A model generated the notes under the pieces. The model was not told the origin of the DNA. It did no database searches and saw only the letters and a program-made list of their open reading frames with translations. A stretch of 64,000 nucleotides of DNA. Origin: an uncultured Sulfurospirillum sp. Lineage in GTDB: Bacteria; Campylobacterota; Campylobacteria; Campylobacterales; Sulfurospirillaceae. Below, one piece after another: positions 32,265 to 53,396 of this stretch (position 1 is its first letter; every line of letters begins with the position of its first letter). The stretch covers positions 960 through 64,959 of the forward strand of contig CAYXNJ010000003.1 in the NCBI GenBank assembly GCA_964466465.1. Direction: 5' to 3'. The translations under genes and the position numbers were made by a program.

Positions 32265-32297
32265 ATTGTAAAAGAATTTGATTACAACTTGGTTACA
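32265..32297 (-). promoter_or_regulatory. Pho-box promoter of pstS
   Basis: TGTAAC-caagt-TGTAAT-N10-TACAAT. Confidence 0.75.
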
Positions 32298-32403
32298 TCT
32301 CTTGTCGTAGATCACAGCAATATTTAGCATTGCCTGCTATAATGCCGCTATTGTTGCTCGATATAATAGCATCTACGATTTACTAGAATTACAAGGATTT
32401 TTC

Positions 32404-34005
32404 ATGTTACAAACGATTCGCGCGAAACTCTTCTTTTTAATGGTCGTTGTTCTTTTTGGAACTGTCACTCTTAGCTATTTGCTGATTTCCAATGCAAATC
32501 GTGCTGAAAAAGCAACCGATAAAATTCAAACCACCGGTGAGATTTCAAAGCATTTCACAGAACTTCTTGCACATGCAAGAGGCTATCAGCTCTTTGCTAA
32601 CCAAAACTCTCTTGATGCCTACACTAAGGCCTATAAAGATTTAACAGAGCATCTTGATGAGCTTAAAGGTTTGCTTGAAAATAAAGACAACCTTTCACTA
32701 CTTGCACAAATTACGGATGAACTTAAAGCACATCGCGCAACCAATGATCATCGTTTTGAACTTGTTAAAAAATATACCACTACTATCAATTCACCTGAGT
32801 TTCTTTCCTCCGCTGATGGGAAAAATTTTCTACAAATCACTGACGAACTGAGAACGCAATACGCTTCAATCCAAACAAAAATAGAAAAGCTTTCCAATAC
32901 CATTATGGACTATGAAGATGCTCAAGTAGAGAGAGCTCGCATGATTGGTATTATTATGGCACTGCTCGTATCAGGTGGTGCATGTTTTCTTTTCTGGTTT
33001 ATTGCAAGTAAAATCAAATATTCCATTCAAAAAGCATCAGACGAGTGTGCTTACATCGGTCAGCATAAGGACCTTCATCATACCATCGACACCGTTGGCA
33101 ATGATGAAATCGCACATATGATGCAAACGGTCAATACCCTTCTCTCACAGCTACGCCATGCTATTGATGATGCCAAACGCACCGCACTTGAAAATGCTGC
33201 TGTTGCCGAAGAGCTTTCATCCACCTCACTTCAAATTGGCAAACGTACCGAAGATGCAGCAAAAGAGGTCGATGAAACCGTTCATGCCACACAAGCGGTT
33301 GCATCCATCCTTAAAACCAGTGAAGAGAGTTCACAACACTCAGGAAAAGTCATTGAACACGTAGCCGATGAGCTTGGAAACGCTTCTAAAGAGGTGCTTG
33401 CTGTCTCTTCTGATCTTCAAAATATCGTTGTGAGCCAAACGGATTTATCAAGCCGTCTTGAACACCTCGATAGTGAAGTCACACAAGTTCAACAAGTCCT
33501 TGGTGTTATCTCTGACATTGCAGAACAAACCAACCTTCTTGCCCTTAATGCAGCCATTGAAGCAGCACGCGCAGGAGAACATGGACGCGGTTTTGCGGTC
33601 GTTGCCGATGAAGTACGAAAATTGGCTGAGCGTACACAAAAAAGTCTTGTTGAGAGTAACGCAACCGTTGCTGTCATCGTTCAATCGGTCAATACCGCAA
33701 CTGAAATTATGAAAAGAAGCGCTGAAGAGATCCAAGAACTAGGACATCGTGCTGAAAATACGCAAACATTGATGATTAGAACAGTAGAAACCATGAATGA
33801 AGCAAAAACGTTAGCGCTTCATACCGTCAAAGATGCCCAAGCAGGTAGTGTCAAAGCCGATGAAGTGCTAAATCGCATCCATAATATTCATCAACTCTCT
33901 ACAACCAATGCCAGAAGTGTCGAAGAAATAGCAAGTGCAGCAGAGCATCTCTCTAAACTCTCTGACAACCTTAGCCATGCACTTGCCACCTTTAAAACAG
34001 CCTAA
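32404..34005 (+). CDS. Methyl-accepting chemotaxis protein
   Basis: Two TM helices, periplasmic helical domain, [42 protein letters not shown]. Confidence 0.95.
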
Positions 34006-34014
34006 GGAATGCGT

Positions 34015-34800
34015 ATGATGGAGCGTATGCCAAGCCTCTTTTTGGGGCATGGCTCACCCATGAATCTTGTGTTAGAAAACAGCTTCACCGAAGGTCTTGA
34101 AGCACTTTCACGTGAGCTTCCAACCCCTAAAGCCATTCTTGTCATCTCAGCACATTGGTACACCAACCAAACGGCTGTCAGTATGAGTTCTGGCATTGCG
34201 TATGAAACGGTGTATGACTTTTATGGCTTCCCCCCTTCTTTGTATGAGCTAAGCTACAAATCACCGAGCAATAACACCCTCTCCAAGCGTATCGCAACGC
34301 TTTTAGATGCTCCTTTAATTGAGCGAGGGCTAGATCATGGTGCATGGATGCCTTTGTATTATCTTTTTCCTAAAGCGAGTATCCCCATCATTCAACTGAG
34401 CATCAATAAAAACCTACCATTGATCGCACATGTTAAACTGGGCGAGCAACTCCAAGTGCTACGCGATGAGGGCATTATGATCATCGGAAGTGGCAATATA
34501 ACGCACAATTTAGGTATGGTCGATTTTTACAATATCAACGCACCTGCTGTGGAATGGGCACAAAATGTAGATACCTTTATTGATAAAGCGTTTAGAACAA
34601 ACGATATCGAAAGCCTTATACGCATTGAAGAGCGATGCCCTGATTTTAAAACAGCACACCCTTCATTAGACCACTATGTACCACTCCTCTACATTGCGGG
34701 GACACGTCATGTAAACGATGATCTCACCAGTATCACCCCTCTTTTTCAAAATGCTAGCCTTTCTATGCGAGGATTTATGCTTCAAAGCAAAACCAGCTAA
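34015..34800 (+). CDS. DODA/LigB-type extradiol dioxygenase (YgiD-like)
   Basis: FLGHGSPM, ISAHW, YDFYGFP, RGLDHG and HP..DHYVPL motifs. Confidence 0.88.
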   Translation: MMERMPSLFLGHGSPMNLVLENSFTEGLEALSRELPTPKAILVISAHWYTNQTAVSMSSGIAYETVYDFYGFPPSLYELSYKSPSNNTLSKRIATLLDAPLIERGLDHGAWMPLYYLFPKASIPIIQLSINKNLPLIAHVKLGEQLQVLRDEGIMIIGSGNITHNLGMVDFYNINAPAVEWAQNVDTFIDKAFRTNDIESLIRIEERCPDFKTAHPSLDHYVPLLYIAGTRHVNDDLTSITPLFQNASLSMRGFMLQSKTS

Positions 34801-34910
34801 ACGTATAAAAAAGTACGTTTAAACTCTACTTATCTCACACTAAATATCACGCATGACAACTACAATTTGTGTTTAATATAAAATTAAATACAAATTGTAA
34901 GGAATATTTT

Positions 34911-36515
34911 ATGTTTAAGACAATCCGCTCCAAACTTGTGATGTTGTTTCTCATCATTTTAATGGGAACCATCTGTTTAAGTTACCTTCTTATTTCCAAT
35001 ACATCAAGCGCTGAAGTGGCTGTGCGAAAAGTTCAGGTGATTGAGAAAATCACACGTGATACGGCTGAGCTGTTGATGCAATCTCGTGGGTATCAAATTA
35101 CTTTTGTGCCTATGTTTATGGAGAAGTCCATCGAAGCGGAGCGAACCCTTGAAAAACACCTTATAGAATTGCAACCTTTACTGACCAGCGAACGCGACAT
35201 TGCTCTTTTTAAAGAGATTAAAGTAGGTGTTGACGCCTTTGCCGAATCAACCTTGCCTCGTTTTGAGCTTCTCACAAAATACAAAAAAGCCACCGATACA
35301 CCAGAGTTTTTAGCAACAGCAGATGGAAAAAGGTTTACAGAGTTGACCAACAAAGGACGCGATGGCTTTATCATCATCTCCAAAAAAGCAGATGAGCTTT
35401 CCAAAGCCATTGAAGAAGAAGAAAAAGCATCGTTAGCCAAAGCCCGAAAATTGGGCATTACTCTTGCTCTAGTTGTTCTCATCATCACCAATCTCTTTTT
35501 CTGGTATGTGGCATCGAACATTAAGAAATCATTAGAAATAGCCACCAAAGAGTGTCAATACATTGGCGCAACCAAAGATCTTATGCACACCATAGAGACT
35601 CATGGTGATGATGAAATTGCGACCATGATGCAAACGGTCAACGCCCTGCTCTCTCAAATCAGCCATGCCATTGACGATGCTAAACGTACTGCTACAGAAA
35701 ATGCAGCAGTTGCTGAGGAGCTTTCTTCTACCTCTATGCAAATAGGAAAACGCACCGAAGAGACCGATCAAGAGGTTGATCATGCGGTCAGTACGACCAA
35801 AAGGGTTGCGGGCATTTTACATGACAGCGAAGAGAATGCTGGACGCGCAGGCAGCGTAATGCAAAACGTGGCAAATGAACTTAACAATGCTTCATCCGAA
35901 GTCCTTGCGGTCTCTTCTGACCTTCAAAGTGTCGTCGTTAACCAAACCGATCTTTCAGCGCGTTTAGAACAACTTAACCAAGAAGTCACGCAAGTACAAC
36001 AAGTCCTCTCTGTCATTGCAGATATCGCAGAACAGACCAATCTTTTGGCACTCAATGCCGCCATTGAAGCAGCACGTGCAGGAGAGCATGGACGCGGTTT
36101 TGCCGTGGTTGCCGATGAAGTACGCAAGCTTGCTGAACGTACCCAAAAAAGCCTTGTGGAGAGCAACTCCACCGTAGCCGTCATCACCCAGTCAGTTGCG
36201 ACCTCATCCGAACTTATGAAGAAAAATGCGGCAGAGATTCAATCCCTTGGAAACAGAGCAGAAAATACCCAACAACTCATGCTTAAAACCGTTGAAAACA
36301 TGAACGAAACTGCCAGTATTGCGCAGGGTGCGGCAAAAGAAGCCAAACATGGAAGCATCGAAGCCAATGCAATGTTAGAGAGAGTCAATACCATTCATAA
36401 ACTCACCTCTACGAATGCCAGAAGTGTCGAAGAGATCGCCAGTGCAGCAGAACACCTCGCTAAACTCTCTACCAATCTTAGCAACGCCCTCTCTGTCTTT
36501 AAAACAACAGCATAA
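34911..36515 (+). CDS. Methyl-accepting chemotaxis protein (paralog of 32404-34005)
   Basis: Same architecture as the first MCP; homologous periplasmic domain (SRGYQ, PEFL..ADGK). Confidence 0.95.
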
Positions 36516-36523
36516 ATCACTAC

Positions 36524-36550
36524 AGCTAAGCCCTATTTTAGGGCTTAGCT
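36524..36550. terminator. Bidirectional hairpin
   Basis: AGCTAAGCCCTA-ttt-TAGGGCTTAGCT between convergent genes. Confidence 0.7.
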
Positions 36551-36588
36551 TAATTTCTTACCTTTTATCAAATGATTTAACTCTTCTT

Positions 36589-37809
36589 TTACGCTTTTAA
36601 TGCCTTTTTAAAAAAATCTACCGCTTCTAAAAGGTGCGTTTTTGTTTCACTCTCTGGCATGTTATGTAACCATATATTTATTTCATTCCAACCCCAGTTA
36701 TATGTAACACCTTGATATTTACTCATCCATGCTTTTTTGGAGAGAGCATATGCACTGTTAAAGGCAATACCTTGAAGGATTTTGAGCATCTCATAAATCA
36801 TCATTGCTTCTTTATTTTCATAGCAAAATTCTAAAAATTTGTTTTCATCCTTAAAAGGTTGATTGAGTATTAACTGAAGTTCAAATAAGTTCGTATAAGC
36901 AGCATTTTTTTGAGGATTAATCTCAATGGCTTTTTGATATGCAACTATCGCTTCTGCGTACTTCTCTTGATTAGCATACAAAATCCCTATATTGAAATAT
37001 GCTTCATCTTTTTTTGGATTAATCTCAATGGCTTTTTGATACGCGACTAAAGCGTCCTTATAGTTTTTTTGTTCATCATACACATACCCCATATTATAAT
37101 ACGCTGAATCATTATTAGGATTAATCTCAATGGCTTTTTGATACGCGACTAAAGCGTTTTCATACTTTTTTTGTTTAGTATATGTGTTCCCTATATTGTA
37201 ATATGTTGCATCATTATGAGGATAAATCGCCAGTGATTTTTGATACGCTTCAATTGCCTTATCATACTCTTTAGCGGAAGAATGGCTAAGTCCTTGCATA
37301 AATAGCTCTTCTGCTTTGGACTGGCTTTTAATCCCTTCTTTTGCGGTTTCAACAGCCTTTGCTATCTTCTCTTGAGCTTCTTTCTCAAGCTTATCGATGA
37401 TGCTTTGAAGTGTTGTTTGAGCTTCTTTGTTTATCCATTCTTCAGTCTCTTTTTTTGCCGCTTCTCTAGCTTCTTCTTTGGCTTTTGATTTAACACTCAA
37501 ATATGATACAAAGCTAAAACCTACTAACAAAACAGTAACTAAACCACCTAAGATGGTCGCAAGGACTCCAAATCTATCAACACCACCACTTATAATGTCC
37601 ACACGACTATTCGCATCTTCCAGTCTGTATTTCAAACTTTCGATGCCTTGTTCGCTTTTTTTGGCTTCATCCACATCTTTTTTTAGCTCATCGATGGTTT
37701 TTTGAAGTTGTTCTATTTTGTAGTTGAGTAGCTCGGTATTTGGCGTTTCTTGTTGTGCGCCAAACACACAAGAGGCAAGAAGTAACACCATAAACATCGT
37801 TTTTTTCAT
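36589..37809 (-). CDS. Membrane-anchored TPR-repeat protein
   Basis: Signal peptide, coiled coil, TM helix, coiled coil, then about four to five 34-aa TPRs (AYQKAIEINP). Confidence 0.85.
   Translation of the reverse strand: MKKTMFMVLLLASCVFGAQQETPNTELLNYKIEQLQKTIDELKKDVDEAKKSEQGIESLKYRLEDANSRVDIISGGVDRFGVLATILGGLVTVLLVGFSFVSYLSVKSKAKEEAREAAKKETEEWINKEAQTTLQSIIDKLEKEAQEKIAKAVETAKEGIKSQSKAEELFMQGLSHSSAKEYDKAIEAYQKSLAIYPHNDATYYNIGNTYTKQKKYENALVAYQKAIEINPNNDSAYYNMGYVYDEQKNYKDALVAYQKAIEINPKKDEAYFNIGILYANQEKYAEAIVAYQKAIEINPQKNAAYTNLFELQLILNQPFKDENKFLEFCYENKEAMMIYEMLKILQGIAFNSAYALSKKAWMSKYQGVTYNWGWNEINIWLHNMPESETKTHLLEAVDFFKKALKA
36914..37245. repeat. 102-bp-period intragenic repeat (TPR units)
   Basis: GGATTAATCTCAATGGCTTTTTGATA identical at 36914, 37016 and 37118; diverged copy at 37220. 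Confidence 0.9.
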
Positions 37810-37928
37810 CTCACACTCCCTAAAGCGGATACATAAATCTGCAAATGATAATACTCATTGTACCAAAATACGATTGGTTTGTCAGGGAAAGATGAAGGGC
37901 ATATTATTGCCCTTCTTAGAAGTAGAGG

Positions 37929-39644
37929 CTAAGAGGCTTTGATATACCGTGCCTTTTTCGCCTCTTTGATTTTGGTGATGTCCACTAAAATGAAACTATC
38001 GACACAGTTCGCAAAATCTTTGTCGATGTTGAAGTCTAAAAAGCAAATGCCTCCCTCTTCGCACAGCTCAGTGTATTGTTTATACAGTGTTGGCACGCTC
38101 AGATCCATATGAGAAAGCTGCTCTTTAAGCACCGCAAAGTCCTCTTTATAGTCCTCTCCTTTGAAAAATGCCTGTGCTTCTTCTTTTTCAACCTTACTCA
38201 TAAAAAAGCCATTACGAGCACTCACCAACGCTTTGGGCGATGTAAAATAGAGCGAATAAAAGGTGATGATCAGATTTTTAGCGATCTTTGGATACACATC
38301 ACTGAGACTTACAGGCCCGTACATGTAACGAATATGCGGGTTTTTAAACAGATACGCCCCGATGCCCTGCCAGAGATAATCCAGCGCCCTTGTACCCCAA
38401 TAACGCGGCTGCACAAAGCTACGCCCTAACTCAATGGAGTTATGCAAGTACGGTGTAAACTCTGGAGTAAACTCAAATAAGGTTTGAGAGTAAAACCCTT
38501 CCACCCCAAAATACTCACTGATATAATTGGCTTCTCCGATGCGGTATGCTCCCACCACTTCAAGCTCTTCATCGTCCCAAAGCACGATGTGTTTATAGTG
38601 TTTATCAAAGGCATCCACATCTCTTTTAGAGCCTGTTCCCTCTTCGACTTTACGAAACGTAAACTCACGCAAGCGCCCTATCTCTTTCATCAAAATAGAA
38701 CCCGCCTCATACTCATAAAGATAGATCTTTTTGCCATCGCTGGTTTGTCCTAAAAGCGTTGATTTTTTGAGCTCTGCTCGTATGGCTTTACGCTCTTCGG
38801 GGTGTGCTATCGCCTTTTGGGTTGCAAAGATGCCCTTCTTGCCTCGACTGATTTTATAGAGATGCTTTTTAAGAAGATTAATCAGTGTTGTGTCGCCAAA
38901 ACCTGAATTTTGAAGCGTTTTATAGGTAATCATCTCGCCGATTTTAAAGCTAATGACTTTTGAGCGCTTCTTAAACATCTCACGCGCAAGCAAGAAGGTC
39001 GAGAGCTTTTTATTGATCATCGAAAGCGTGTAAAAAATGGGTGAATTTTTCGCATCAATGAAAACAGGTAACAGAGGCGAGTTGCTCTTTTGGGCAAACT
39101 TCAAAAAACCCTTTTTCCACTTCGCATCTTTGATGCCTGTAGGATGGGCACGAGAGACTTCACCAGAGGGAAAGACAATGAGCGCTTCATCATTTTCCAG
39201 CGCATCATACACCTTTTTGATGGACTCTTTGGCGGTTGTGCCACTCAGGTTGTCAATGGGAATTAAAATGTTGCTCAGTGGTTCTATCTGCATCAAAACA
39301 TCATTGGCTAAGACTTTCACATCGCTTCGTATCTCTTTGATGAGTGAGATCAGTGCTAACGCATCGAGTGCTCCTAAAGGGTGGTTTGCGATGATGATAA
39401 CGCGCCCAGAGGAAGGGATGTTGGCTTTATCTTTATTGGAAACGGTGTAGCCAAAGTTAAAATACTCCAACACCGCTTCCACAAAATCAAACCCTTTATA
39501 CGCCTCGCCATGGGTTAAAAAATCGTTTATCTCCTCTTGGTGCAGTAACTTTTTGAGAAGATACACAACGAAATTTCTCACCATACTTGGATAATAGGCA
39601 ATAGTGGGGTACTTGAGGCTTAACGTTTTTTCGACATCGACCAT
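37929..39644 (-). CDS. PlsC-type acyltransferase + GNAT (Acetyltransf_5) fusion; OlsF-like ornithine lipid synthase
   Basis: NHPLGALD (HX4D) and FPSGEVS in the N-half; EIGRLRE..F, VGAYR, ELGRSFV and LDYLWQGIG in the C-half; 571 aa. Confidence 0.75.
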   Translation of the reverse strand: MVDVEKTLSLKYPTIAYYPSMVRNFVVYLLKKLLHQEEINDFLTHGEAYKGFDFVEAVLEYFNFGYTVSNKDKANIPSSGRVIIIANHPLGALDALALISLIKEIRSDVKVLANDVLMQIEPLSNILIPIDNLSGTTAKESIKKVYDALENDEALIVFPSGEVSRAHPTGIKDAKWKKGFLKFAQKSNSPLLPVFIDAKNSPIFYTLSMINKKLSTFLLAREMFKKRSKVISFKIGEMITYKTLQNSGFGDTTLINLLKKHLYKISRGKKGIFATQKAIAHPEERKAIRAELKKSTLLGQTSDGKKIYLYEYEAGSILMKEIGRLREFTFRKVEEGTGSKRDVDAFDKHYKHIVLWDDEELEVVGAYRIGEANYISEYFGVEGFYSQTLFEFTPEFTPYLHNSIELGRSFVQPRYWGTRALDYLWQGIGAYLFKNPHIRYMYGPVSLSDVYPKIAKNLIITFYSLYFTSPKALVSARNGFFMSKVEKEEAQAFFKGEDYKEDFAVLKEQLSHMDLSVPTLYKQYTELCEEGGICFLDFNIDKDFANCVDSFILVDITKIKEAKKARYIKAS

Positions 39645-39670
39645 GAGTGCTCCTTACTTTTTTTGGGTTG

Positions 39671-39703
39671 ATTATAAGCGGAGCTCATTACGATACGGTA
39701 ACG
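39671..39703 (-). promoter_or_regulatory. Pho-box promoter of the OlsF-like gene
   Basis: CGTTAC-cgtat-CGTAAT-N10-TATAAT. Confidence 0.7.
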
Positions 39704-39718
39704 CTTGAGGGGTTTTTA

Positions 39719-39751
39719 TGTTACCATATTGTAATGATTTCAAACTACAAT
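39719..39751 (+). promoter_or_regulatory. Pho-box promoter of phoU-phoB-phoR
   Basis: TGTTAC-catat-TGTAAT-N10-TACAAT. Confidence 0.75.
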
Positions 39752-39777
39752 GATACAAACTATTGTAAGGAAAATGT

Positions 39778-40446
39778 ATGCTTCAAAAATATGAAGAAAG
39801 ACTCATAGAAATCAAAAAAATGCTCGTTGATTTGGGTTCTGAGATCACAATGGCAAGTGAAAAAACCCTCAGTGGTATGGAGAGTTTGGACATTGCTCGT
39901 TTTGATTCAGCCAAAACCCTTCTTAAAAACATTGAAAATCAAGCCAATGCGATTGACAATGAAATTGTCGTTACACTCGCTCTTTTTGGTCCAGAAGCGA
40001 AAGACTTGCGCAAAATGGTGGCGTACCTTAAAATCACCAATGAACTGGTCAAAATCGCTGAAAATATCCGAAGCTTTAGTAAGCGTATGGCATTGCACCT
40101 TCAAGGCGATGTACCGTTTGTCTCGTTGCATGAGTACTCAACACATTTGTGCAAAACTGCTATCAAAGCCGTTACTTTAGCCATTAGTACCATTGAAGTC
40201 GCAGACCCTGAAACACTGGAAGATACGTATAGAAAAGTCAAAGTTGAAGAGAGCAAGAGTGATGATTTGTACTCTATTTTAGAGAAAAACATCCTCAGCG
40301 ACATTGCAAAGATGATCGACCAATCGGCTGATTTTATTCAGATTTTAAGTACCATGCGAAAATTAGAGCGCATGGCAGATCGTAGCGTTAACATCGTACA
40401 ATTGATGATCTTCGCGCGCATTGGCGGAGAGATGAAAACCTATTAG
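39778..40446 (+). CDS. phoU: Phosphate signalling protein PhoU
   Basis: Two PhoU repeats (IDNE...P.AKDLR; LERMADR..NI). Confidence 0.9.
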   Translation: MLQKYEERLIEIKKMLVDLGSEITMASEKTLSGMESLDIARFDSAKTLLKNIENQANAIDNEIVVTLALFGPEAKDLRKMVAYLKITNELVKIAENIRSFSKRMALHLQGDVPFVSLHEYSTHLCKTAIKAVTLAISTIEVADPETLEDTYRKVKVEESKSDDLYSILEKNILSDIAKMIDQSADFIQILSTMRKLERMADRSVNIVQLMIFARIGGEMKTY

Positions 40447-40453
40447 GAACCTA

Positions 40454-41125
40454 ATGAAACAGACTATTTTGATTATTGAAGACGAAGAGGATTTGCTGGA
40501 GCTTTTAGAGTACCATCTTCAAAAAGAGGGGTATGAGACTCTGGGTTTTTTGAGCACTAAAAATGTTGAAAAATGCCTTCAAGAAGAGCCGATTGATCTT
40601 CTCATTGTTGATCGTAACCTCCCTGGTGTTGAAGGTAGCGAGTTTGTCGAAGCGCTGCGTAAAAAAGGTTTTTCGCAAGCGGTTATTTTTGTAACGGCAA
40701 AAGACAGCGATGCAAACATTGAAGAGGGTTTTATGCGCGGTTGTGATGACTACGTCACAAAACCTTACAATATGAAAGAGCTGCTTCTTCGTATCAAAGC
40801 TATTTTAGCACGCACCTCGCCTGTGAGCAAAAGCACACTCTCTTACCGTGACCTTATACTTGATCTTGAAGCACACCGTTTACAGGTTGACTCTAAAGAG
40901 GTTGAACTCACGAAATTAGAGTTTGACCTACTTCGTACCTTGATCGAGAACAAAAGCTCCGTTTTGAGTCGTGAGTTTTTACTCGAACATGTCTGGAAAA
41001 GCGATGACTTTTTCCAAGACAAAACGGTCAATGTCGCTATCAATCGTCTCAAAGCCAAAATAGACCCAACCAAAGAGAAAGAGTACATCAAATCCATTTG
41101 GGGAGTAGGATACACGTTATGCTAA
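40454..41125 (+). CDS. phoB: OmpR/PhoB-family response regulator
   Basis: IIEDE, IVDRNLPG, DDYVTKP and winged helix (LTKLEFDLL, KSIWGVGY); located between phoU and the kinase. Confidence 0.82.
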   Translation: MKQTILIIEDEEDLLELLEYHLQKEGYETLGFLSTKNVEKCLQEEPIDLLIVDRNLPGVEGSEFVEALRKKGFSQAVIFVTAKDSDANIEEGFMRGCDDYVTKPYNMKELLLRIKAILARTSPVSKSTLSYRDLILDLEAHRLQVDSKEVELTKLEFDLLRTLIENKSSVLSREFLLEHVWKSDDFFQDKTVNVAINRLKAKIDPTKEKEYIKSIWGVGYTLC

Positions 41126-42519
41126 TGCTGCATCAGCACATCATTCGAGGACTGCTTATCCTTTTTATCGGCACACTGCTTCTCTCTGGCATTGTGAGTT
41201 ATTTCACCATTAAAAGCAACGATATGGAACGGTATCAAGCCTCACTAGAATCGCATATTAAAATTATCCAATACCAACTCCCCCAAGTCAAAGACCGCGA
41301 AGCGTTTGCCAAAGTCATCAAAGAGAGTACTGGCATACGTTTTACGTTAATTAACGAATCAGGTGTCGTTTTAGTCGATAGCGACAAAGACAATGAAACC
41401 ATGGATAACCACTCAAGACGTGAAGAGATCATCATGGCGCAAAAGATGGAATTTGCTCATGCTGTGCGTTTTTCTGATTCGGTGAAAAGTAACTTTTTAT
41501 ACGTTGCACACCGCTTTAAACAGGACGATCATTTTCTGTTTATACGTCTTGCTACCAACATTGACACCATCATGCACAACTTTTATGACCTCTGGATAAA
41601 GCTTACCATCATCTTTAGCCTCAGCATCCTTACGGGTCTTTATGGTGCGTATATTTTCAGTCAAAAGATTCGCTATGAGATCGATAAAATCGTAGGAAAT
41701 CTACAGCAAATTGCAGACAAAGAGTACAAGATCACCCTCTCCTCACACTTTAGTTTGGAGTTTTTTGAGATAGCCAATTATCTTAAAAAATTGGCTGCAA
41801 AGCTTGAAAAACGCGCCAAGCAAAAGCGCAAATATACCGCTAAAATCAAACTCATTTCGCAACAACGAAGTGATGTTATCTCTGCCATTAGCCATGAGTT
41901 TAAAAACCCTATCGCATCCATCATGGGGTATGCACAAACGCTTTTGGATGACCCCAATGCCAATACCCAAATCAAAGAGCGCTTTTTAGGTAAAATCGTT
42001 CAAAACGCCCAGAAAATCTCTGGTATGATTGATCGCCTGACCCTAACCACCAAGTTTGAAAATGGCGACTTCAACACCCAAAACACTACGTTTGATGTGG
42101 TTAAGATGACCCAAGAAATCGCACAAACGTTCAGGGAAAAACACCATACCCGCTCTATTGAGTGCATGCTTCCTGAGAGCTATATGATTACCGCTGATCG
42201 TACAATGATCGAGATCGTCATCTCAAACCTTATCGACAATGCACTCAAATACTCCGATGAAACCGTTCGCGTTATACTTGAAAATGACGCCTTGCATGTT
42301 AAAGACACTGGTGTGGGCATCAAAGAAGAGGACATTGAAAAAGTAACCCAAAAGTTCTACCGTTCCAACTCACACTCATGGGACAACTCGATGGGACTAG
42401 GTCTTGCCCTTGTCAATTACATCCTCAAACTGCATAACACCACACTAGAGATACAAAGTAGCTTAGGTGTAGGATCTGATTTTTCGTTTAAATTGCCTTC
42501 AAACAATACTGTATTATGA
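41119..42519 (+). CDS. phoR: PhoR-type sensor histidine kinase
   Basis: MDNHSRREEI periplasmic motif, SHEFKNPI, NLIDNALKY, DTGVGI and GLGL motifs. Confidence 0.82.
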   Translation: MLMLHQHIIRGLLILFIGTLLLSGIVSYFTIKSNDMERYQASLESHIKIIQYQLPQVKDREAFAKVIKESTGIRFTLINESGVVLVDSDKDNETMDNHSRREEIIMAQKMEFAHAVRFSDSVKSNFLYVAHRFKQDDHFLFIRLATNIDTIMHNFYDLWIKLTIIFSLSILTGLYGAYIFSQKIRYEIDKIVGNLQQIADKEYKITLSSHFSLEFFEIANYLKKLAAKLEKRAKQKRKYTAKIKLISQQRSDVISAISHEFKNPIASIMGYAQTLLDDPNANTQIKERFLGKIVQNAQKISGMIDRLTLTTKFENGDFNTQNTTFDVVKMTQEIAQTFREKHHTRSIECMLPESYMITADRTMIEIVISNLIDNALKYSDETVRVILENDALHVKDTGVGIKEEDIEKVTQKFYRSNSHSWDNSMGLGLALVNYILKLHNTTLEIQSSLGVGSDFSFKLPSNNTVL

Positions 42520-42578
42520 TACGCCATTCAAAAGAGGTTAACAAGCGTTAGCCTCTTTTTTCACTACAAAGGCTATAT

Positions 42579-42998: not shown

Positions 42999-43003
42999 TT
43001 CCT

Positions 43004-44922: not shown

Positions 44923-44943
44923 ACACACCTTTACATGTGGAAT

Positions 44944-45288: not shown

Positions 45289-45414
45289 AATTATCACCTC
45301 TTATTTTGAATTATACCATAATAACAATTTTTGTTCTTTACTTACATTTTTTTCCGTAAGGTAATTATAAGTTATTTAGGTATATATTTTCCTAAATTAT
45401 TCAAGGAGAAGACC

Positions 45415-45978: not shown

Positions 45979-46003
45979 TCAAGAGGGTTTTAAACCCTCT
46001 TGA
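45979..46003. terminator. Bidirectional hairpin
   Basis: TCAAGAGGGTTT-t-AAACCCTCTTGA. Confidence 0.65.
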
Positions 46004-46010
46004 AAGAGAT

Positions 46011-47729
46011 TTACACTTCGTTAGTGCGTGGTAAGACGATCGTTACAACTAAACCACCATGTTCGTTGGTTGCACTAATAGAGCCTTGCATACTTTGTTC
46101 AATAATCTGTTTAGACATATAAAGCCCTGTTCCATTTCCACCCGTTGGCTCTTTGGTGGTAAAAAATGGATCAAAAATATGCGGTAACTGCTCGTCCGTA
46201 ACACCACCGCCATTATCGGAAACCTCAATGATAATGTAGTACTCTTGCGCATACGCTTTAATCGTAATAGTACCATGCTCTATCTCTTTTTGGATAATCG
46301 CATCTTTCGCGTTATTGATCAGTACTAAAAGCACATGTGAAAGCTCTTTTTTAAAGCTATTCATAACAATGCCACTCGGACAATCGACATGAAATACAAT
46401 GTCTTTGTTAGCTATGCCTCCATCACTGATGCGAATACTCTCTTCGATGGATTTATACAGAGGGAAGAGCACTTTTTCCTTATCAGGTTTGAAGAAATCT
46501 TTAAAATCATCGATGGTTGAGGACATATGTTGAATGAGCTCTCGAAGTTTTTTAATCTCATCTTCAAGCATTTGAGGGGTCAATTTATCTGTTTTGCTGT
46601 CTAAATAAATTTTGCTAATGACGACACTAATGGTATTGAGCGGTTGACGCCATTGATGGGCAATGTTGTTCAGCATCTCACCAAGGGCAGCAAGTTTGGC
46701 TTGTTGAAAAAGCATCCTGTCTTTGAGCCTGCTGTTTTCAACCTCTTCTTGTACTTTTTTTTCTAAGTTGGCATTGAGATACTCTAGCTCTTCTTTGTTA
46801 TCGAACGATTCGCATACCGCAGTGGCAATCGCTCCATACTCATCCTCTTTGAGCAGATACTTTCGTAAAGGCTCTTTGCTTCTGTTGTTAAGTGCATGCG
46901 TAATGTCGCGTAGAGGGAAAGAGAGAAATTTAGCAATTAAAAGTGCCAAAATACCCATCAAAAAGAGAATTTCCAAGAGTGAGAGCTGAATATCTTTCGC
47001 ACCATAATTATCCAAAACTTCACTCATGCGGTTGCGTAGATGTAAATACAACACACCCACTTTTTCGCCTTGAATACCAAGTAAAGGAATCTCATGCGTA
47101 ATCTTATACTCATTGTGATTACCATTGGGTAGGTTTAAATATGCCTCTGCAATCCCAAAACTACTCAGCTCTTTTAAAAAAGCCTCATCCCAATGTTTGG
47201 CAATGATGACAAACCCTTTGGCAAGAGAGTCTTTGCTCACATCCTCATCAATACGGTGTATGGGAGCGACATAAAATTCAACAATACTCTGGGGTGTTTT
47301 AGCATAAAAATGCAATAACCGAGCACTCGAAGTATCAAGCAGTGCTAAAGGAAACATCGTAGGAAGCTCTTCTAAAAAAGGTTTGTTTGCTTCTTTAAAC
47401 AAAATATTTTTAGCCTGATCTAACACATAAAAAGCGTTAATGCCAAATTGTATGATGCTACCATCAAGATTATCTTTTGCCCAAGTAGGCTCTTTATGCT
47501 CTGTAAAATTGGCAAGATCATTCCACGCCGCATAATCAAGCGCTTGCTTTTTAAATGGGTCTGATTTTAAGGCGAGAAGCTGTTTAAACCCTTGTGCAAG
47601 TTCCTCAGCATTTTGTTTCGCCATATCATTGACTTCATCGCGCTGATACGACCAGTTAATCAGCTCGAAGCCAATACACAGTAAAAAAGCCAGCATTGTT
47701 AAGATTAAAAAAGAGGACTTCACACTCAT
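46011..47729 (-). CDS. Sensor histidine kinase with CHASE4-like periplasmic domain
   Basis: DYAAWNDL (CHASE4-like), [20 protein letters not shown] and GTGLY motifs. Confidence 0.85.
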
Positions 47730-47765
47730 TGTCGTACTCCTTCGCACACAGTGCAAGTAAAGACA

Positions 47766-48434
47766 CTAACTCTCTTTGGCGTAAGATTCCCACCCTTGTT
47801 TTCGCAAGATACATGCTGGACATTCGCCACAACCGTATCCCCAAGCATGTTTTTCTTTATGGTTACCATTATAGCACGTATGTGACTCGTTGAGGACAAG
47901 CTCTAAAACGCCCTCTTTGTGTGAAAGATCAAATGTTTCTGCTTTGGTAAGGTGCATCAATGGGTAGTGAAAGGTGATGTTCGCTTCGCTTCCAAGATTG
48001 AGGGCAAGTTCTAATGCCTTAACGAAGGGCTCTCTACAATCAGGATACCCTGAATAATCGGTCTGGTTAACCCCAATGATGATATGTGCTATCCCTTGTT
48101 TTTGAGCAAATGCGTGTGCGAGGGTAAAAAAGATCGCGTTGCGATTTGGAACAAAAGAGGCAGGAAGATTCGTATGTGTTCGATGGTGCGCACCAATATC
48201 TTGTGTACTGTCAATGAGCGCTGAATCATTAAGCTGTGAAAAAGCATCAAGACTAAGCAAGGTGTTTTTTATGCCTAAAATGTTCGCAATTTTTTCAGCC
48301 TGAGCAATTTCAACACGGTGTTTTTGACCATAATCAAAGGTAATGCTTTCAACATACTCAAAACGGTTTTTTGCCCAACCAAGACAGGTTGTACTGTCTT
48401 GCCCACCACTAAAAACGACTAAAGCACGGCTCAT
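47766..48434 (-). CDS. queC: 7-cyano-7-deazaguanine synthase
   Basis: VFSGGQDSTTC, FVPNRN, YPDCR and CGECPAC motifs; start at ATG 48434. Confidence 0.95.
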   Translation of the reverse strand: MSRALVVFSGGQDSTTCLGWAKNRFEYVESITFDYGQKHRVEIAQAEKIANILGIKNTLLSLDAFSQLNDSALIDSTQDIGAHHRTHTNLPASFVPNRNAIFFTLAHAFAQKQGIAHIIIGVNQTDYSGYPDCREPFVKALELALNLGSEANITFHYPLMHLTKAETFDLSHKEGVLELVLNESHTCYNGNHKEKHAWGYGCGECPACILRKQGWESYAKES

Positions 48435-49012
48435 TACTCTACTCCTAAAAACTTGTGCAACTGCACACTTAAGATAAATTGTGGATGCGCTTTGACAAAC
48501 TCCACACAAAATGCGACATTCTCTTTATTGGGGCGATCCGTCTCATTTTGAGGTTGAATGAAGATAGGTTTATAGCTTTTAAATTCAAGTATTTTTTCAA
48601 CAGGAGAGTTTTTACCAACGACAAATTTGATCTCATCATACCCATGTTTTTCTATCTTATCCCAATCTTTGGGGCTATAGGTTACCCAGTTTGCATTGGC
48701 AATGTTAGAAAAATTATAGCCATTTGTCTCCACAGCGACAGAGTACATATACGCTTGTAAAAATTCGATAAAACCATTGAGATTATAGATACTAGGCTCT
48801 CCACCTGTGATGATAACGTGCATAGAAGGGTAGGCTTTAATGCGCTCTAGTACCTCATCAAAGCTCAAGCTTTGATACTCACCTTTGTGCAGTAATTCAT
48901 CGCAAAAACCACAGCTAAGATTGCAGCCATGCAAACGAATAAAAATGGAAGGAACACCCACTTGCGTACCTTCGCCTTGAATAGAATAAAATATTTCGAC
49001 GACTTTTAACAT
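48434..49012 (-). CDS. queE: 7-carboxy-7-deazaguanine synthase (radical SAM)
   Basis: EIFYSIQGEG, CNLSCGFCD and ITGGEP motifs. Confidence 0.92.
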   Translation of the reverse strand: MLKVVEIFYSIQGEGTQVGVPSIFIRLHGCNLSCGFCDELLHKGEYQSLSFDEVLERIKAYPSMHVIITGGEPSIYNLNGFIEFLQAYMYSVAVETNGYNFSNIANANWVTYSPKDWDKIEKHGYDEIKFVVGKNSPVEKILEFKSYKPIFIQPQNETDRPNKENVAFCVEFVKAHPQFILSVQLHKFLGVE

Positions 49013-49133
49013 AACACTCTTCTTAAATATAATTGTTTTATCATAATATATTTTCACTAAAAAGGACGTCAAAAATTTTCTTTATATCTCTTTTTGGGTA
49101 TCATTTAAGTATTCAAAGATAAGGCAATATGGA

Positions 49134-49676
49134 ATGATTTGGCAAATAAGTAAAGAGTTCGATTTTTGTTATGGACACCGTGTATGGTCGCAGCAGCTTG
49201 ATAGCGAGTTCTCACTCACGGGTTGTTTGGCATGCAGACATCTCCACGGTCATCAAGGCAAAGTCATCGTATATCTACAAAGTTCCCAGCTTAAAGATGG
49301 CATGGTCACAGACTTTCACCACCTTAACTGGTTCAAGCTCTTTTTAGACAACACCTTAGATCATAAATTTATCATCGATATTCACGATCCGCTGTTTGAA
49401 ACACTCTTGCCACACTTTGCTGACAAACAAAACCTCATTGACAATGAAGCAGGTTATAAAATTCCCGACCTCAATCACGTCAAAGACCAACCAAGCCACA
49501 TTGTTGAGATGTATGATGGCTACATCATCGTTGATTTTGTACCAACCAGTGAAAATATCTCAACATGGTTGTTGGGCATCATTGCGAAAAAAATGAGTCG
49601 CTTGGGAGTAGAAGTGTCACACGTAGAATTTTTAGAGACACCTAAAAGCAGAAGTATCGTTTACAATCAGAAGTAG
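49134..49676 (+). CDS. queD: 6-carboxytetrahydropterin synthase
   Basis: C..LHGH, GMVTDF, LDH and PTSENI motifs. Confidence 0.88.
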   Translation: MIWQISKEFDFCYGHRVWSQQLDSEFSLTGCLACRHLHGHQGKVIVYLQSSQLKDGMVTDFHHLNWFKLFLDNTLDHKFIIDIHDPLFETLLPHFADKQNLIDNEAGYKIPDLNHVKDQPSHIVEMYDGYIIVDFVPTSENISTWLLGIIAKKMSRLGVEVSHVEFLETPKSRSIVYNQK

Positions 49677-49690
49677 GAAATCCCTACTTC
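49670..49690. terminator. Hairpin between convergent queD and dut
   Basis: GAAGTAGG-aaatc-CCTACTTC. Confidence 0.55.
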
Positions 49691-49695
49691 TTCAT

Positions 49696-50394
49696 TTATG
49701 CCTTTGGATAGGCTTTTTCGAGTTTTTTATACAGTGCATCGACTGTTGGAGCAGACTCGCCTTGAAGGAGAGAGAGCATCACTTCGTTATCTTCTTTGCC
49801 GTTCCATACTTTGATGTAATGTCCTTCTTTATAACCATGATCTTGACGGAATTGGTTGAGAACATTTTTTGCCACATAGAATTTGTACAATACTTTTAGG
49901 TTGATGCCACACTTACGTGAAAGCGTAAAGTATTCGCGTAAAAGCCCATCAAAAAGGTCTATTTCAAACCCTGTTGTATCGTGGATAATATTTTCAATAT
50001 CGTTTACTAACTCCATTGGATCAGCTGAACTTGGAGAGAGTGGTTCTTTCGTGAACGCCTCAAACCCTTGAACATCCAACACATCTAAAACCAACTGGTC
50101 AATGTCGCCTTTTCCATTAGTTTTATAATCTTCCAATAATAGACTCATAATAAAATGCCAGATATCAACAATCTCAACGGTGACATTGTCCCAATCGGTC
50201 TCTTTGTTAATGTTCTTCCAATGTTTCCAACTAAAACTATCAATGAGTTCTGCGCACTCCATATAGATACATCGCTTCCAGTTAATCATGCGGTTATGTT
50301 TGGTGTATCCATTTTCCCAGCCGATGCCATTGGTTTCATCGTTTAATTTTTGCTGGAGTAAAAACATCTGCGTTAAATAATCTTTGCTTGTCAT
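49696..50394 (-). CDS. dut: Dimeric (all-alpha) dUTPase
   Basis: ECAELIDSFSWKHWK, EIVDIWHF and KNVLNQFRQDHGY motifs. Confidence 0.9.
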   Translation of the reverse strand: MTSKDYLTQMFLLQQKLNDETNGIGWENGYTKHNRMINWKRCIYMECAELIDSFSWKHWKNINKETDWDNVTVEIVDIWHFIMSLLLEDYKTNGKGDIDQLVLDVLDVQGFEAFTKEPLSPSSADPMELVNDIENIIHDTTGFEIDLFDGLLREYFTLSRKCGINLKVLYKFYVAKNVLNQFRQDHGYKEGHYIKVWNGKEDNEVMLSLLQGESAPTVDALYKKLEKAYPKA

Positions 50395-50416
50395 ACTTTT
50401 TCCTTCTCTTAAAACG

Positions 50417-51190
50417 CTAGATTATACTTTGTTGTGACATAAATGTCAAAATGGACTCGCTGCCTTTGCGATAACCTAGCTCAAAACATGCTTCTATCTG
50501 CCCAAAAGTAAACAATCCAAAATCATCTAACGAAGAATCGCTAATGCACAGATCACTCTGTTCGATCTGCCGTTTGGATGAAGCCAAGATGGAGAGATAA
50601 ATCGCCCGTTCTAAACTAGAGAAGATATGCCTTTTGGGTTGAGTACGAGGAGGAAAAAGATTGATACTTACCACAGGATAAGAAAGCCCTAAAAGCGGCT
50701 CTACGGGTAAATTGTCCATAAATCCCCCATCAATCAGTGTGTAATTTTCATACGCGATGGGGCGAAAAATAGGAATGAGCGCTGAGCTTGCAATGGCAAG
50801 TTTTATCGTCTCGCCTTCAGAAAAACGTACGATTTCGCCACTGGGCAAATCCACACACGTGACAAACGTAGGAATTTTCATCTGCTCTAAGCGAGCCACA
50901 GGTGCTATCTCTTTTAAAATAGCTGCTTTTTCGTTGATGCAAAGAAGCCCTTTACGAAAGTAGTTAAACTGGAACACCTTACGAAATGCTCTACTTTTAA
51001 ACAAACGAAACATATCAAAGGCACTCACCCCAGAGCCTACACTCACCGCGATAACCGCGCCAATACTTGTACCCGAAACGGCGGCTATTTCCACATTGTG
51101 TCGCTCAAGTGCGGCGATGACACCTAGATGAAAAGCCCCACGTGCTGCGCCTCCTGAGAGTGCTAAAGAGATCTTCAATGCCCCAGCCAT
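50417..51190 (-). CDS. Patatin-like phospholipase
   Basis: SGGAARG, GTSIG (GxSxG) and DGG motifs. Confidence 0.9.
   Translation of the reverse strand: MAGALKISLALSGGAARGAFHLGVIAALERHNVEIAAVSGTSIGAVIAVSVGSGVSAFDMFRLFKSRAFRKVFQFNYFRKGLLCINEKAAILKEIAPVARLEQMKIPTFVTCVDLPSGEIVRFSEGETIKLAIASSALIPIFRPIAYENYTLIDGGFMDNLPVEPLLGLSYPVVSINLFPPRTQPKRHIFSSLERAIYLSILASSKRQIEQSDLCISDSSLDDFGLFTFGQIEACFELGYRKGSESILTFMSQQSII
50421..50449 (-). promoter_or_regulatory. Consensus sigma70 promoter for dut inside the patatin 3' end
   Basis: TTGACA-17 bp-TATAAT. Confidence 0.65.
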
Positions 51191-51948
51191 CGTATAATCC
51201 TAAATTCACCCTCATAGGTTTCTACAATGGCAGTACATGACTCCACCCAATCGCCGCAATTAAGGTATTTAATGCCCTCAATATCGCGTATCTCCGCCTT
51301 GTGAATATGTCCACAAATCACGCCATCAAAGTGGTGTCGTTTGGCATGTTCACTTAAAATCGCCTCAAAATCGGTGATAAAAGAGACCGAGCTTTTGACA
51401 TGATCTTTCACATACTTTGAAAGCGACCAGTGGCTATGGTAACGAAGCTTTTTGCGCCACCAATTGAGCCATTGATTGATATTGAGTAAGAGGTCATACC
51501 CCAAATCACCTAAGATGGCAAGCCAGCGTTTTGTCATCGTCACCGAGTCAAAAAAATCGCCATGCGTAATGTAGAAACGCCCTTCTTTAAGGCTTTTATA
51601 CTCACATTCATCGACAACAACAATGTGATCACCCAAACCTAAAGGCAAAAAAGAGCGCAAAAATTCATCATGATTGCCTGTAATGTAAAAGACATTAGTG
51701 CCTTTTCTAGCTTTTCGTAAAATCTTTTGGATGACATCGGAGTGGGATTGCGCCCATTTAATTTTGCGTTTAATCGCCCAACCATCAATGACATCACCGA
51801 CAAGATAGAGGTTTTCACAGTGTGTAAATTTTAAAAATTCTAAAAGCTCCTCCGCTTGGGAAAACCGTGTTCCCAAGTGAAGGTCGGAGATAAAGATGGA
51901 GCGAAAAGCAATTGGGTCTTCATCCCCTAAAAATTGGTATTTGGTCAT
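51175..51948 (-). CDS. PlcP-like metallophosphoesterase (LpxH-like fold; probable phospholipase C)
   Basis: SDLHLG, GDVIDGW, QKILRKARKG, GNHDE, HGD.FD, GHIH and N.GDW motifs. Confidence 0.72.
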   Translation of the reverse strand: MTKYQFLGDEDPIAFRSIFISDLHLGTRFSQAEELLEFLKFTHCENLYLVGDVIDGWAIKRKIKWAQSHSDVIQKILRKARKGTNVFYITGNHDEFLRSFLPLGLGDHIVVVDECEYKSLKEGRFYITHGDFFDSVTMTKRWLAILGDLGYDLLLNINQWLNWWRKKLRYHSHWSLSKYVKDHVKSSVSFITDFEAILSEHAKRHHFDGVICGHIHKAEIRDIEGIKYLNCGDWVESCTAIVETYEGEFRIIRWLGH

Positions 51949-53342
51949 TTGTGTTTATCACTATCTCCAAAAATATCATCGGCAAAGTGAGAGAATTTAC
52001 CACGCACCGATTTATCGAGCTCTATCGCAAAAAGCGAGATGTGTGTTTGCTCTTTTTTGGTCTGTTTCAAAAGTGACGTCAAACCGTTGTTAAAGCGGTT
52101 TAGGTACATGTTGTCAATTTGGCGGTTTGAGCCAATCACAATCGCTTTACAGTTGTTATCCAGACGCGATAAAATAAGCTGAGTCGTGTTGTTTGAACTG
52201 TTTTGCCACTCATCTAGGATGACGATGGCATTAGAGAGCGTTCGACCCCTCGCCTCACCTGGCCAGAGCTTTTCGATGTTGTATTTGGTCATCAGCTCTT
52301 GCACTTTTTTCTCGATAGCTACTTGCGGTTCTTGCGTATTGTCACGTTTTTTCATTCGTTTTTTAGCGATAAACTCCAAAGTATCATACAGCGCCATATT
52401 GTAAATTCTAAACTTCTCATCGTTGCCTGAAAGATAACCTACATCCGCTCCTTTATCGACACTCTCAATGGAGTTACGCACATAGACGATTTTCTCGTAA
52501 CTGCCTTTGGTAACGAGCCTCATCGCTGCGACAAATGCCATCAAGGTTTTACCACTACCTGCACGTGCATCGATGACGTGAATGTCATACATGTTAGAGA
52601 GCAGTGCTTTCATAAAAAACTTCTGTTTGAGGTTGATCGGTTTTACTTCCAATCCTCTAAAGTCTAACTCTTCATTGAGCATATGGATGATGCCACCAGG
52701 AGAGATGATGGCATGTTCTGAATTTCCATCTGGGCTTATAAACTCATAGCAGTAGTTTCCACTTTTATACTCAGGGTCATACTCCATAATCAGCTTTTTA
52801 TCCAGCGTATTAAACAACGCTGAGTCAACAGGAAGCTGTTTGACAAACTCAAACTCTGGCACATCGCTTCTATCTTCTCTTAAAGACTCAACCGTAACAT
52901 TGTAAAAAAGCCCAAACATACGTGCGTAAACATCTAAAGAAAGAAAAATGACCTTGTAGTCTGGATAGTACTCTTGCGCACCTGAAGCGACCTCTAAGAT
53001 GCGTTTGTCGTTGGATTCATTGATGAATTGTGAGTCAATGTCTGAAGAGTAAAGTGTCTTTGAGAAAAGATGAATCGCTATATCTTCTTCATAGCGCATC
53101 TTCACCACGCGATAAAGTTCTCCGCTATCGACTTCTTCGACTTTACACGAAGCAAGCATACGTGCGAAACTTCTGGCTTGGTAGCCAAGTTCCGTGAAGT
53201 TCTTTTTAAAATCTTCCAGCTCTATAAGCACCGTCTCGGGAATCACAATGATGTTGTTTCCGCCATCACACAACTCTTTGATAAAATTGGTATTGTGCAA
53301 GATAATGTTCGTATCGAGCACATAAACTTTATTGACTGACAT
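51945..53342 (-). CDS. PIN-PhoH (PhoH2/YlaK-like) protein
   Basis: N-terminal PIN (VLDTNII, NDKRIL); C-terminal PhoH ATPase (RAGSGKT, RGRTL, LDEWQN); start moved to ATG 53342, downstream of the promoter. Confidence 0.87.
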   Translation of the reverse strand: MSVNKVYVLDTNIILHNTNFIKELCDGGNNIIVIPETVLIELEDFKKNFTELGYQARSFARMLASCKVEEVDSGELYRVVKMRYEEDIAIHLFSKTLYSSDIDSQFINESNDKRILEVASGAQEYYPDYKVIFLSLDVYARMFGLFYNVTVESLREDRSDVPEFEFVKQLPVDSALFNTLDKKLIMEYDPEYKSGNYCYEFISPDGNSEHAIISPGGIIHMLNEELDFRGLEVKPINLKQKFFMKALLSNMYDIHVIDARAGSGKTLMAFVAAMRLVTKGSYEKIVYVRNSIESVDKGADVGYLSGNDEKFRIYNMALYDTLEFIAKKRMKKRDNTQEPQVAIEKKVQELMTKYNIEKLWPGEARGRTLSNAIVILDEWQNSSNNTTQLILSRLDNNCKAIVIGSNRQIDNMYLNRFNNGLTSLLKQTKKEQTHISLFAIELDKSVRGKFSHFADDIFGDSDKHK

Positions 53343-53363
53343 CCCACTTCCTTTCATGCAACA

Positions 53364-53396
53364 ATTGTATGCAAACATTATATCAACTTGGTAACA
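53364..53396 (-). promoter_or_regulatory. Pho-box promoter of the PIN-PhoH/PlcP/patatin operon
   Basis: TGTTAC-caagt-TGATAT-N10-TACAAT; 14 of 17 box positions match the pstS box. Confidence 0.62.

Follow-up and report, generated by a model that had tools for sequence, protein, structure and literature searches.

PHO boxes have been defined as pairs of 11-nt direct repeats (PMC4415409; PMC4447250), and in the phoB promoter of Escherichia coli the box takes the form TTTCAT-N5-TGTCAT-N10-CATAAT, with no -35 element. A similar pair of half-sites is found in Firmicutes, where the WalR/VicR (YycF) consensus is TGTWAH-N5-TGTWAH and footprinted VicR sites include TGTTAT-N5-TGTAAT and TGTAAT-N5-CGTAAT (PMC4168254). 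In the phylum to which Sulfurospirillum belongs, the PhosS/PhosR system of Campylobacter jejuni has been named (PMC4415409). Here we examine four promoters of a Sulfurospirillum (Campylobacterota) that share the box-like pattern yGTWAC-N5-yGWWAT-N10-TAyAAT, together with a fifth, inverted box at a gene for a Pit-family phosphate transporter. All five lie in the window, by which we mean the whole 64,000-nt stretch of DNA that was analyzed.

Comparison of sequences indicates that these elements are very probably Pho boxes, the operators of the OmpR/PhoB-family response regulator encoded at 40454-41125. We favor this reading because of the geometry of the boxes, the absent -35, the phosphate-related targets, the footprinting, the layout of the E. 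coli phoB promoter and the three PhoB contact residues conserved in the regulator. A preliminary description of the same DNA had listed the four promoters and read them as Pho boxes; the sites are confirmed, and that reading is supported.

Geometry and predicted targets of the four boxes

All four 33-nt boxes were recovered letter for letter in place. The pstS box lies on the minus strand at 32297-32265 (TGTAAC-N5-TGTAAT-N10-TACAAT) and is made up of TGTAAC at 32297-32292, TGTAAT at 32286-32281 and the -10 element TACAAT at 32270-32265. The pstS ATG follows at 32231, transcription is predicted to start near 32258 on the same strand, and the genes behind the box are those of the high-affinity phosphate ABC transporter, pstS-pstC-pstA-pstB (27864-32231, minus; Pfam). 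The olsF box, also on the minus strand (39703-39671), reads CGTTAC-N5-CGTAAT-N10-TATAAT, with CGTTAC at 39703-39698, CGTAAT at 39692-39687, the -10 TATAAT at 39676-39671 and the ATG at 39644. The gene (37929-39644, minus) encodes a bifunctional ornithine-lipid synthase of 571 aa that scores 846 bits with NF052615 against a curated cutoff of 620. On the plus strand, the phoU-phoB-phoR box at 39719-39751 (TGTTAC-N5-TGTAAT-N10-TACAAT) comprises TGTTAC at 39719-39724, TGTAAT at 39730-39735 and the -10 TACAAT at 39746-39751, ahead of the phoU ATG at 39778. The fourth box, that of the PIN-PhoH operon (53396-53364, minus), reads TGTTAC-N5-TGATAT-N10-TACAAT; TGTTAC occupies 53396-53391, a degenerate TGATAT 53385-53380 and the -10 TACAAT 53369-53364, and the ATG is at 53342. 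The gene names first given to these loci (PstS, PhoU, OmpR-type regulator, PIN-PhoH and OlsF-like) proved right by Pfam and, for OlsF, by NCBIfam.

Each box consists of two 11-nt units with the consensus TGTWAYcAnnT TGTAATnAwtT, and the five window sites and the 61 orthologous promoters all show the 11-bp direct-repeat period (hexamer-N5-hexamer). In the pooled frequency table, T occupied position 3 in 38/38 sites, positions 4 and 6 were degenerate (A/T and C/T), and positions 8, 11, 19 and 22 preferred A or T; G2, A5, G13 and A16 of this table had been fixed beforehand by the pattern used to collect the sites. The core of the box is TGTWA followed by less conserved AT-rich bases, where the E. 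coli core is TGTCA. A two-hexamer sigma-70 scan called none of the four promoters, and no -35 element is present. With the N10 distance to the -10 also upheld, the boxes take the place of the -35, as the preliminary description had noted of repeats bound by PhoB/OmpR regulators in general. Transcription of olsF, phoU and PIN-PhoH is predicted to begin near 39664, 39758 and 53357, respectively. Predicted leaders are short, with 21-33 nt from the -10 to the ATG, and no known RNA family in Rfam overlapped the box sites.

The olsF and phoU boxes stand back to back and are separated by 15 bp (39704-39718) that end in a conserved T-tract, TTTTA. This spacer measured 15 bp in 14/15 genomes and 14 bp in one, and its sequence was variable except for the T-tract. 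The distal hexamers of the two boxes are 21 bp apart, about two helical turns. The region appears to be a bidirectional operator of fixed geometry, an addition to the list of four separate sites.

Behind the fourth box, the genes for PIN-PhoH (51945-53342), a metallophosphoesterase (51175-51948) and a patatin-like phospholipase (50417-51190) form one operon (50417-53342, minus), because their reading frames overlap. Gene order was the same in both type strains, S. deleyianum and S. halorespirans. The PIN-PhoH start was placed at 53342; a longer open reading frame (ORF) from 53378 would engulf the -10, and in the type strains the called product has 465 aa. The metallophosphoesterase shows a weak likeness to LpxH, and homologues of it (48-49% identical) come immediately after a box in two metagenome loci (L141 and L156); a role in lipid remodeling, as a PlcP-type phospholipase C, is possible. 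At the 3' end of the patatin gene lies a perfect TTGACA-17-TATAAT (12/12; 50421-50449, minus), which precedes the gene for a dimeric dUTPase (49696-50394). That gene may be expressed independently of the Pho promoter.

Two other observations concern the surroundings of pstS. A strong GC-rich stem-loop of 9 pairs with a T-rich tail (31151-31172, minus) comes after the pstS stop codon and extends over the called start of pstC; it may act as an attenuator within the operon, permitting excess PstS, and the pstC start may be miscalled. Divergent from pstS are two genes for methyl-accepting chemotaxis proteins (32404-34005 and 34869-36515), a synteny shared by S. halorespirans (L260). Neither of these genes was found to be served by a Pho box, and TGTAAC-N12-TGTAAT at the chemoreceptor start (32388-32411) was rejected for its wrong spacing. 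A role for the two proteins in phosphate taxis is conceivable but unsupported.

Separation from chance and conservation among relatives

A pattern fitted to the four sites matched the window four times against 0.00 expected, which is a circular test. The half-site pair alone, allowing ≤2 mismatches, was not enriched in the window (16 matches vs 14.6 expected). This lack of enrichment, and an exact box inside a coding region, are what could be said for the view that the four matches are AT-rich hexamers lying near -10 elements by chance. That view has next to no credibility, as it is refuted by conservation, by an independent matrix and by shuffles. Of the nine sites that made up the independent matrix, eight came from Arcobacteraceae and the ninth from an unclassified epsilonproteobacterial metagenome-assembled genome (MAG); this matrix ranked the Pit, pstS and phoU sites 1, 2 and 3 of ~128,000 window positions. 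When leave-one-gene-out matrices were built from the orthologous sites of the other genes, each omitted window site ranked 2nd-6th. With a matrix of pooled orthologs, phoU scored 27.8 bits, the best in the window, followed by pstS (27.6), Pit (25.5), olsF (20.7) and PIN-PhoH (19.1). The next two window sites scored 13.8 and 13.0 bits and all others <10, and the mean maximum score in 200 shuffles was 12.6 bits.

The pooled-matrix scan of the 64-kb window therefore yielded no credible site beyond the five at phosphate genes. The exact TGTTAC-N5-TGTAAT at 11790-11806, which accounts for the 13.8 bits, lies inside an ORF of 496 aa, has no -10 and scores within the shuffle range; it was attributed to chance. 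The 13.0-bit site at 16621-16653 (minus; TGTAATGATTTAGTAAT) precedes an EAL-GGDEF-CBS gene (14820-16625), also falls in the shuffle range and is marginal, with an N10 "-10" that overlaps the start codon.

Protein-anchored searches assigned the window to Sulfurospirillum (Campylobacterota), and the nearest match was a MAG with 95-98% amino-acid identity. Orthologous promoters were collected from Sulfurospirillum and Arcobacteraceae (n = 61: 12 pstS, 22 PIN-PhoH, 14 phoU and 13 olsF). The half-site pair at N5 was present in 61/61, and the hexamer exactly 10 bp on was TAnAAT or TATACT in 60/61, the remaining promoter having CATACT. The lengths of N5 and N10 were constant over these promoters while the spacer sequences drifted. 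When the olsF-phoU intergenic regions of 15 genomes were aligned, the phoU box together with its -10 proved nearly invariant and the N10 spacer varied. The divergent olsF box was kept in 13/14 related loci; the locus without it (L002) has unrelated sequence 5' of phoU. The PIN-PhoH box was conserved throughout Sulfurospirillum, and its Arcobacteraceae version is cleaner (TGTAAT-N5-yGTAAT). The complete S. deleyianum and S. halorespirans genomes carried boxes of 20-28 bits at exactly the expected promoters, and within the 20 kb scanned nothing besides the boxes exceeded 10 bits. The olsF box was found in both of these strains and the pstS box also in S. halorespirans. A 78-nt contig of another strain aligned solely over the 33-bp block of pstS box plus -10, and other contigs continued into dissimilar sequence just past 32296/32297, which gives the block the look of a conserved island amid diverged flanks.

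Alternatively, RNA polymerase might recognize the repeats directly, without the help of a dedicated regulator, as a conserved core-promoter or UP-like element at strong housekeeping promoters in this AT-rich lineage. A -35 is generally absent from promoters of Campylobacterota, which depend on AT-rich sequence upstream, and the T-tract adjoining the phoU box is conserved. However, the motif stands at five sites only in the 64 kb, all of them phosphate genes, and other promoters of the window do without it. The Pit copy, which is inverted and downstream of the -10, cannot act as an upstream promoter element, and an 11-bp direct repeat is the binding signature of the OmpR family. We regard this explanation as very improbable.

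The use of the motif for mapping a regulon, as the preliminary description had envisaged, was assessed by scanning the matrix over the window and related loci and by a metagenome scan. In the former, the five window sites were clear of noise. The latter employed the pattern TGTAAY-N5-TGTAAT-N10-TAYAAT and gave at least 120 loci. Among the matches listed there were 61 distinct proteins encoded directly downstream. PstS was the commonest Pfam family (7/61), and the set also held two phosphate-selective porins, two PstC-type permeases and two metallophosphoesterases (48-49% identical to that of the window). BLAST of the downstream ORFs added one Pit homologue among the matches listed. With the other ORFs of the same loci as internal control, homologues of phosphate genes accounted for 10/68 ORFs directly behind a box and for 15/1128 elsewhere (odds ratio 12.8, p = 3e-7), and this 13-fold enrichment bears out the proposed use. 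At one metagenome locus (L167, 33% GC) the box at 625-657 precedes a pstC-pstA...phoU-phoR cluster with a kinase 38% identical to that of the window, which suggests that a more distant AT-rich lineage follows the same logic of regulation. Many other matches are neighbors of unrelated two-component systems, and an NlpC/P60 hydrolase follows one of them; these are most likely WalR-type sites or chance. The motif is predictive within Campylobacterota and not specific across phyla, and as the hexamer pair is also the Firmicute WalR site, a cross-phylum motif scan mixes regulons.

The regulator, the Pit box and other elements of the window

The phoU box opens an operon of three genes on the plus strand: phoU (39778-40446; Pfam PhoU, with TIGR02135 at 66 bits and under its cutoff), the regulator (40454-41125; 223 aa, Pfam Response_reg and Trans_reg_C) and a PhoR-like sensor histidine kinase (41098-42519; HisKA and HATPase_c). 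This operon lies 8 kb from pstSCAB and has the same layout in 14 relatives and the two type strains. The regulator gene is the sole PhoB-like gene in the 64-kb window, its product is 32% identical to E. coli PhoB, and the best 120 hits of a homologue search were all Sulfurospirillum proteins. Its two best NCBIfam matches are PhoB models, although under their cutoffs, and the YycF model gave 145 bits against a cutoff of 340. In the crystal structure of PhoB with DNA, Arg201 hydrogen-bonds a guanine and Thr194 and Val197 contact thymines (PMC3973317). The regulator keeps all three residues as T191, V194 and R198, which fits the invariant TGT of the boxes. PhoB His198 is replaced by Ala and Arg200 by Asn.

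Several points weigh against identifying this protein as the PhoB that binds the boxes. The PhoB models score well under their cutoffs (TIGR02154, 176 vs 296 bits; NF053854, 178 vs 270 bits), NF007546 gives 123 against 471 bits, and the best NCBIfam match of the kinase, PhoR TIGR02966, reaches 158 bits against a cutoff of 334. Public annotation calls the regulator a "response regulator transcription factor" only, and by PDB matches its DNA-binding domain resembles WalR, CovR and ArlR as closely as PhoB. The wing residue Arg219, which in E. coli PhoB hydrogen-bonds bases between the half-sites, is Trp216 here; the Arg219, His198 and Arg200 substitutions may be linked to the change at the hexamer's fourth base. 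The half-site is common to WalR, so its sequence alone does not identify the binder. The public RNA records with this sequence are fragmentary metagenome or metatranscriptome contigs of mixed strains with 90-95% similarity. Among them, the true metatranscriptome contigs reach ~32233 in the pstS coding sequence and none crosses the box, a pattern that is consistent with the model and has no start-site resolution.

The boxes could be real and yet be bound by another OmpR-family regulator, encoded elsewhere in the genome and answering a different signal such as envelope or lipid stress. Several proteins of the family can read a sequence that is also the WalR/VicR consensus, the local regulator is under the PhoB equivalog cutoffs, and inspection for other regulators covered 64 kb of the genome. 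Against this, the best-scoring box drives the regulator's own operon, in an autoregulatory layout kept in 15/15 genomes, and every box target is a phosphate gene. In addition, the box at L167 likewise precedes phosphate genes together with a phoR, and WalRK is a system of Firmicutes (PMC9210968). A second regulator is improbable on this evidence, and assignment of the boxes to the phoU-linked regulator is preferred.

The fifth box was absent from the earlier list of four sites and was found in the half-site search of the window. It reads TGTAAT-N5-TGTAAT at 23728-23712 (minus) and is inverted relative to the gene it adjoins, a monocistronic PHO4/Pit-family phosphate transporter gene on the plus strand (23741-25348; PF01384, E = 4e-111) with a terminator at 25355-25383. 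The box is 13 nt upstream of the pit ATG (23741), between -10-like elements and the ribosome-binding site. Ahead of it on the plus strand are two conserved hexamers resembling a -10, TATACT (23684-23689) and TGCAAT/TACAAT (23701-23706; TGCAAT in the window), so the box would fall at or just past the pit start site. Both half-sites were kept in six relatives, and N5 differed in almost every genome. This is the position of a repressor, and by analogy the regulator would shut pit off, a reading that we hold at somewhat better than even odds. In Sinorhizobium meliloti, phosphate starvation brings about repression of orfA-pit, which has a PHO box immediately before the translation start (PMC3131613). 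The placement at 23712-23728 is the same; the window box differs in being inverted relative to its gene, and repression is here suggested by position.

Repression of pit is the weaker part of the overall interpretation. At a metagenome locus (L200, box at ~403-435) the wiring is opposite to that of the window: the box is placed as for activation, its -10 at N10 and an ATG 28 nt on, ahead of a Pit homologue that is 57% identical over 124 aa. Pit regulation also varies between species (PMC4415409). Alternatively, the inverted box might drive a PhoB-activated antisense or small RNA from the minus strand, or be a non-functional relic. The box is of full consensus quality, and one relative (L100) has a good -10, TAGAAT, at N10 on its minus strand. 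However, the hexamer in that position is a poor -10 in the window (AGGTGA) and in four relatives (TAGGGA, TAAGCG twice and AGGGAG), no minus-strand gene lies downstream, and the bases conserved at this place look like a -10 for pit on the plus strand (TACAAT/TGCAAT). Retention of both half-sites despite a variable spacer argues against a relic. Both variants are unlikely, and a repressor site remains the favored reading of the Pit box.

Among the other elements of the window, matches at 4163-4241 were rejected as Pho boxes, as each copy of a different palindromic element there holds a single half-site only. This 17-bp element, ATAAAATTGTnACAAAT, has a palindromic core TTGTnACAA and occurs at 4167-4183 and 4224-4240, 57 bp apart, in the 250-bp region upstream of the genes for the Rieske protein, cytochrome b and cytochrome c1 (bc1; 4264-6904). 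It is probably an operator of another regulator. A Tn7-like transposition module occupies 524-4012 (minus), with a TnsA-like endonuclease at 3272-4012, a TnsB-like protein (Mu-transposase/integrase-core) at 1390-3285 and an ORF at 524-1393.

Proposed response and comparison with known systems

The layout is that of the E. coli phoB promoter and agrees with the definition of a PHO box; therefore, the classical activation mechanism is the most likely one. When phosphate is scarce, the kinase would phosphorylate the regulator, and a head-to-tail dimer of the latter would bind the two 11-bp units 10 bp upstream of the TAyAAT -10. Sitting in the place of the -35, the dimer would recruit sigma-70 RNA polymerase. 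The units switched on would be pstSCAB for uptake, phoU-phoB-phoR itself, olsF for a phosphorus-free ornithine lipid, and the operon of PIN-PhoH, metallophosphoesterase and patatin, which probably serves to salvage phosphate from phospholipids or nucleic acids. Both olsF and phoU would be driven by the two boxes 15 bp apart. At the inverted Pit box the same protein would most likely block transcription, so that low-affinity uptake is off during starvation.

More speculatively, Sulfurospirillaceae and Arcobacteraceae may share a dual-mode switch of WalR-like specificity. It would activate pst together with membrane remodeling through OlsF, PIN-PhoH, the PlcP-like enzyme and patatin, shut Pit off through an inverted box, and involve PhoH in salvage. 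We advance this fuller scheme tentatively and think it possible rather than probable. If it were true, PhoH, a long-uncharacterized protein of Pho regulons, would gain a concrete role in phosphate salvage.

The boxes provide a cross-validated operator model for phosphate control in a little-studied group, Sulfurospirillum and its Arcobacter relatives, whose habitats include groundwater, wastewater and organohalide-respiring communities. In these bacteria the regulator is annotated generically and a search with the E. coli Pho box finds nothing. The predicted response to scarcity is induction of Pst, replacement of phospholipids by ornithine lipids and closure of Pit, and S. deleyianum and S. 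halorespirans are cultured strains carrying the boxes in which this prediction is testable.

Compared with known systems, the window promoters have a layout identical to that of E. coli phoB. As in E. coli, the regulator operon would be autoregulated, pstS would be a target, and the base-reading residues corresponding to Thr194, Val197 and Arg201 are kept; phoH is a Pho target in E. coli as well. The differences lie in sequence and gene order. The window hexamer is one base from TGTCAT, with A/T rather than C as its fourth base and C/T as its sixth, and the strict E. coli Pho consensus, with ≤3 mismatches, found none of the window box sites. Furthermore, phoU is cotranscribed with phoB-phoR instead of closing the pst operon.

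In sequence and spacing the half-sites are essentially those of WalR: the pstS, phoU and pit boxes fit its consensus exactly, and those of olsF and PhoH depart from it at 2 positions each. However, WalR belongs to another phylum and to a cell-wall regulon, whereas the window regulator adjoins phoU and has phosphate genes as its presumed targets. PhosR of C. jejuni is said to be a phosphate-responsive OmpR-family protein that acts at pstS through 11-bp repeats, reportedly with the consensus GTTTCNAAAANGTTTC (GTTTC-N6-GTTTC). Allowing ≤1 mismatch, this pattern gave 7 matches in the window vs 6.3 expected, none of them at the phosphate promoters. PhosSR is reportedly non-classical and not autoregulated; by contrast, the regulator operon of the window carries the best box.

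Control of olsF by PhoB, or its position behind a pho box, has been described for VC0489 of Vibrio cholerae and for Serratia proteamaculans, and OlsF homologues occur in Campylobacterota (PMC12186959, PMC12971839). Unlike in Vibrio and Serratia, olsF of the window shares a bidirectional control region with the regulator operon. Literature searches for a Pho box of Sulfurospirillum or Arcobacter returned nothing relevant. The preliminary description had called the motif a lineage-specific Pho box. As to its sequence this does not hold, since the motif agrees with the WalR consensus, recurs in Arcobacteraceae and is one base from that of E. coli; as to its use for phosphate control, it does. The system is of a known kind, and what appears specific to the lineage is a phoU-linked, PhoB-type regulator that uses a WalR-like sequence to govern phosphate genes.

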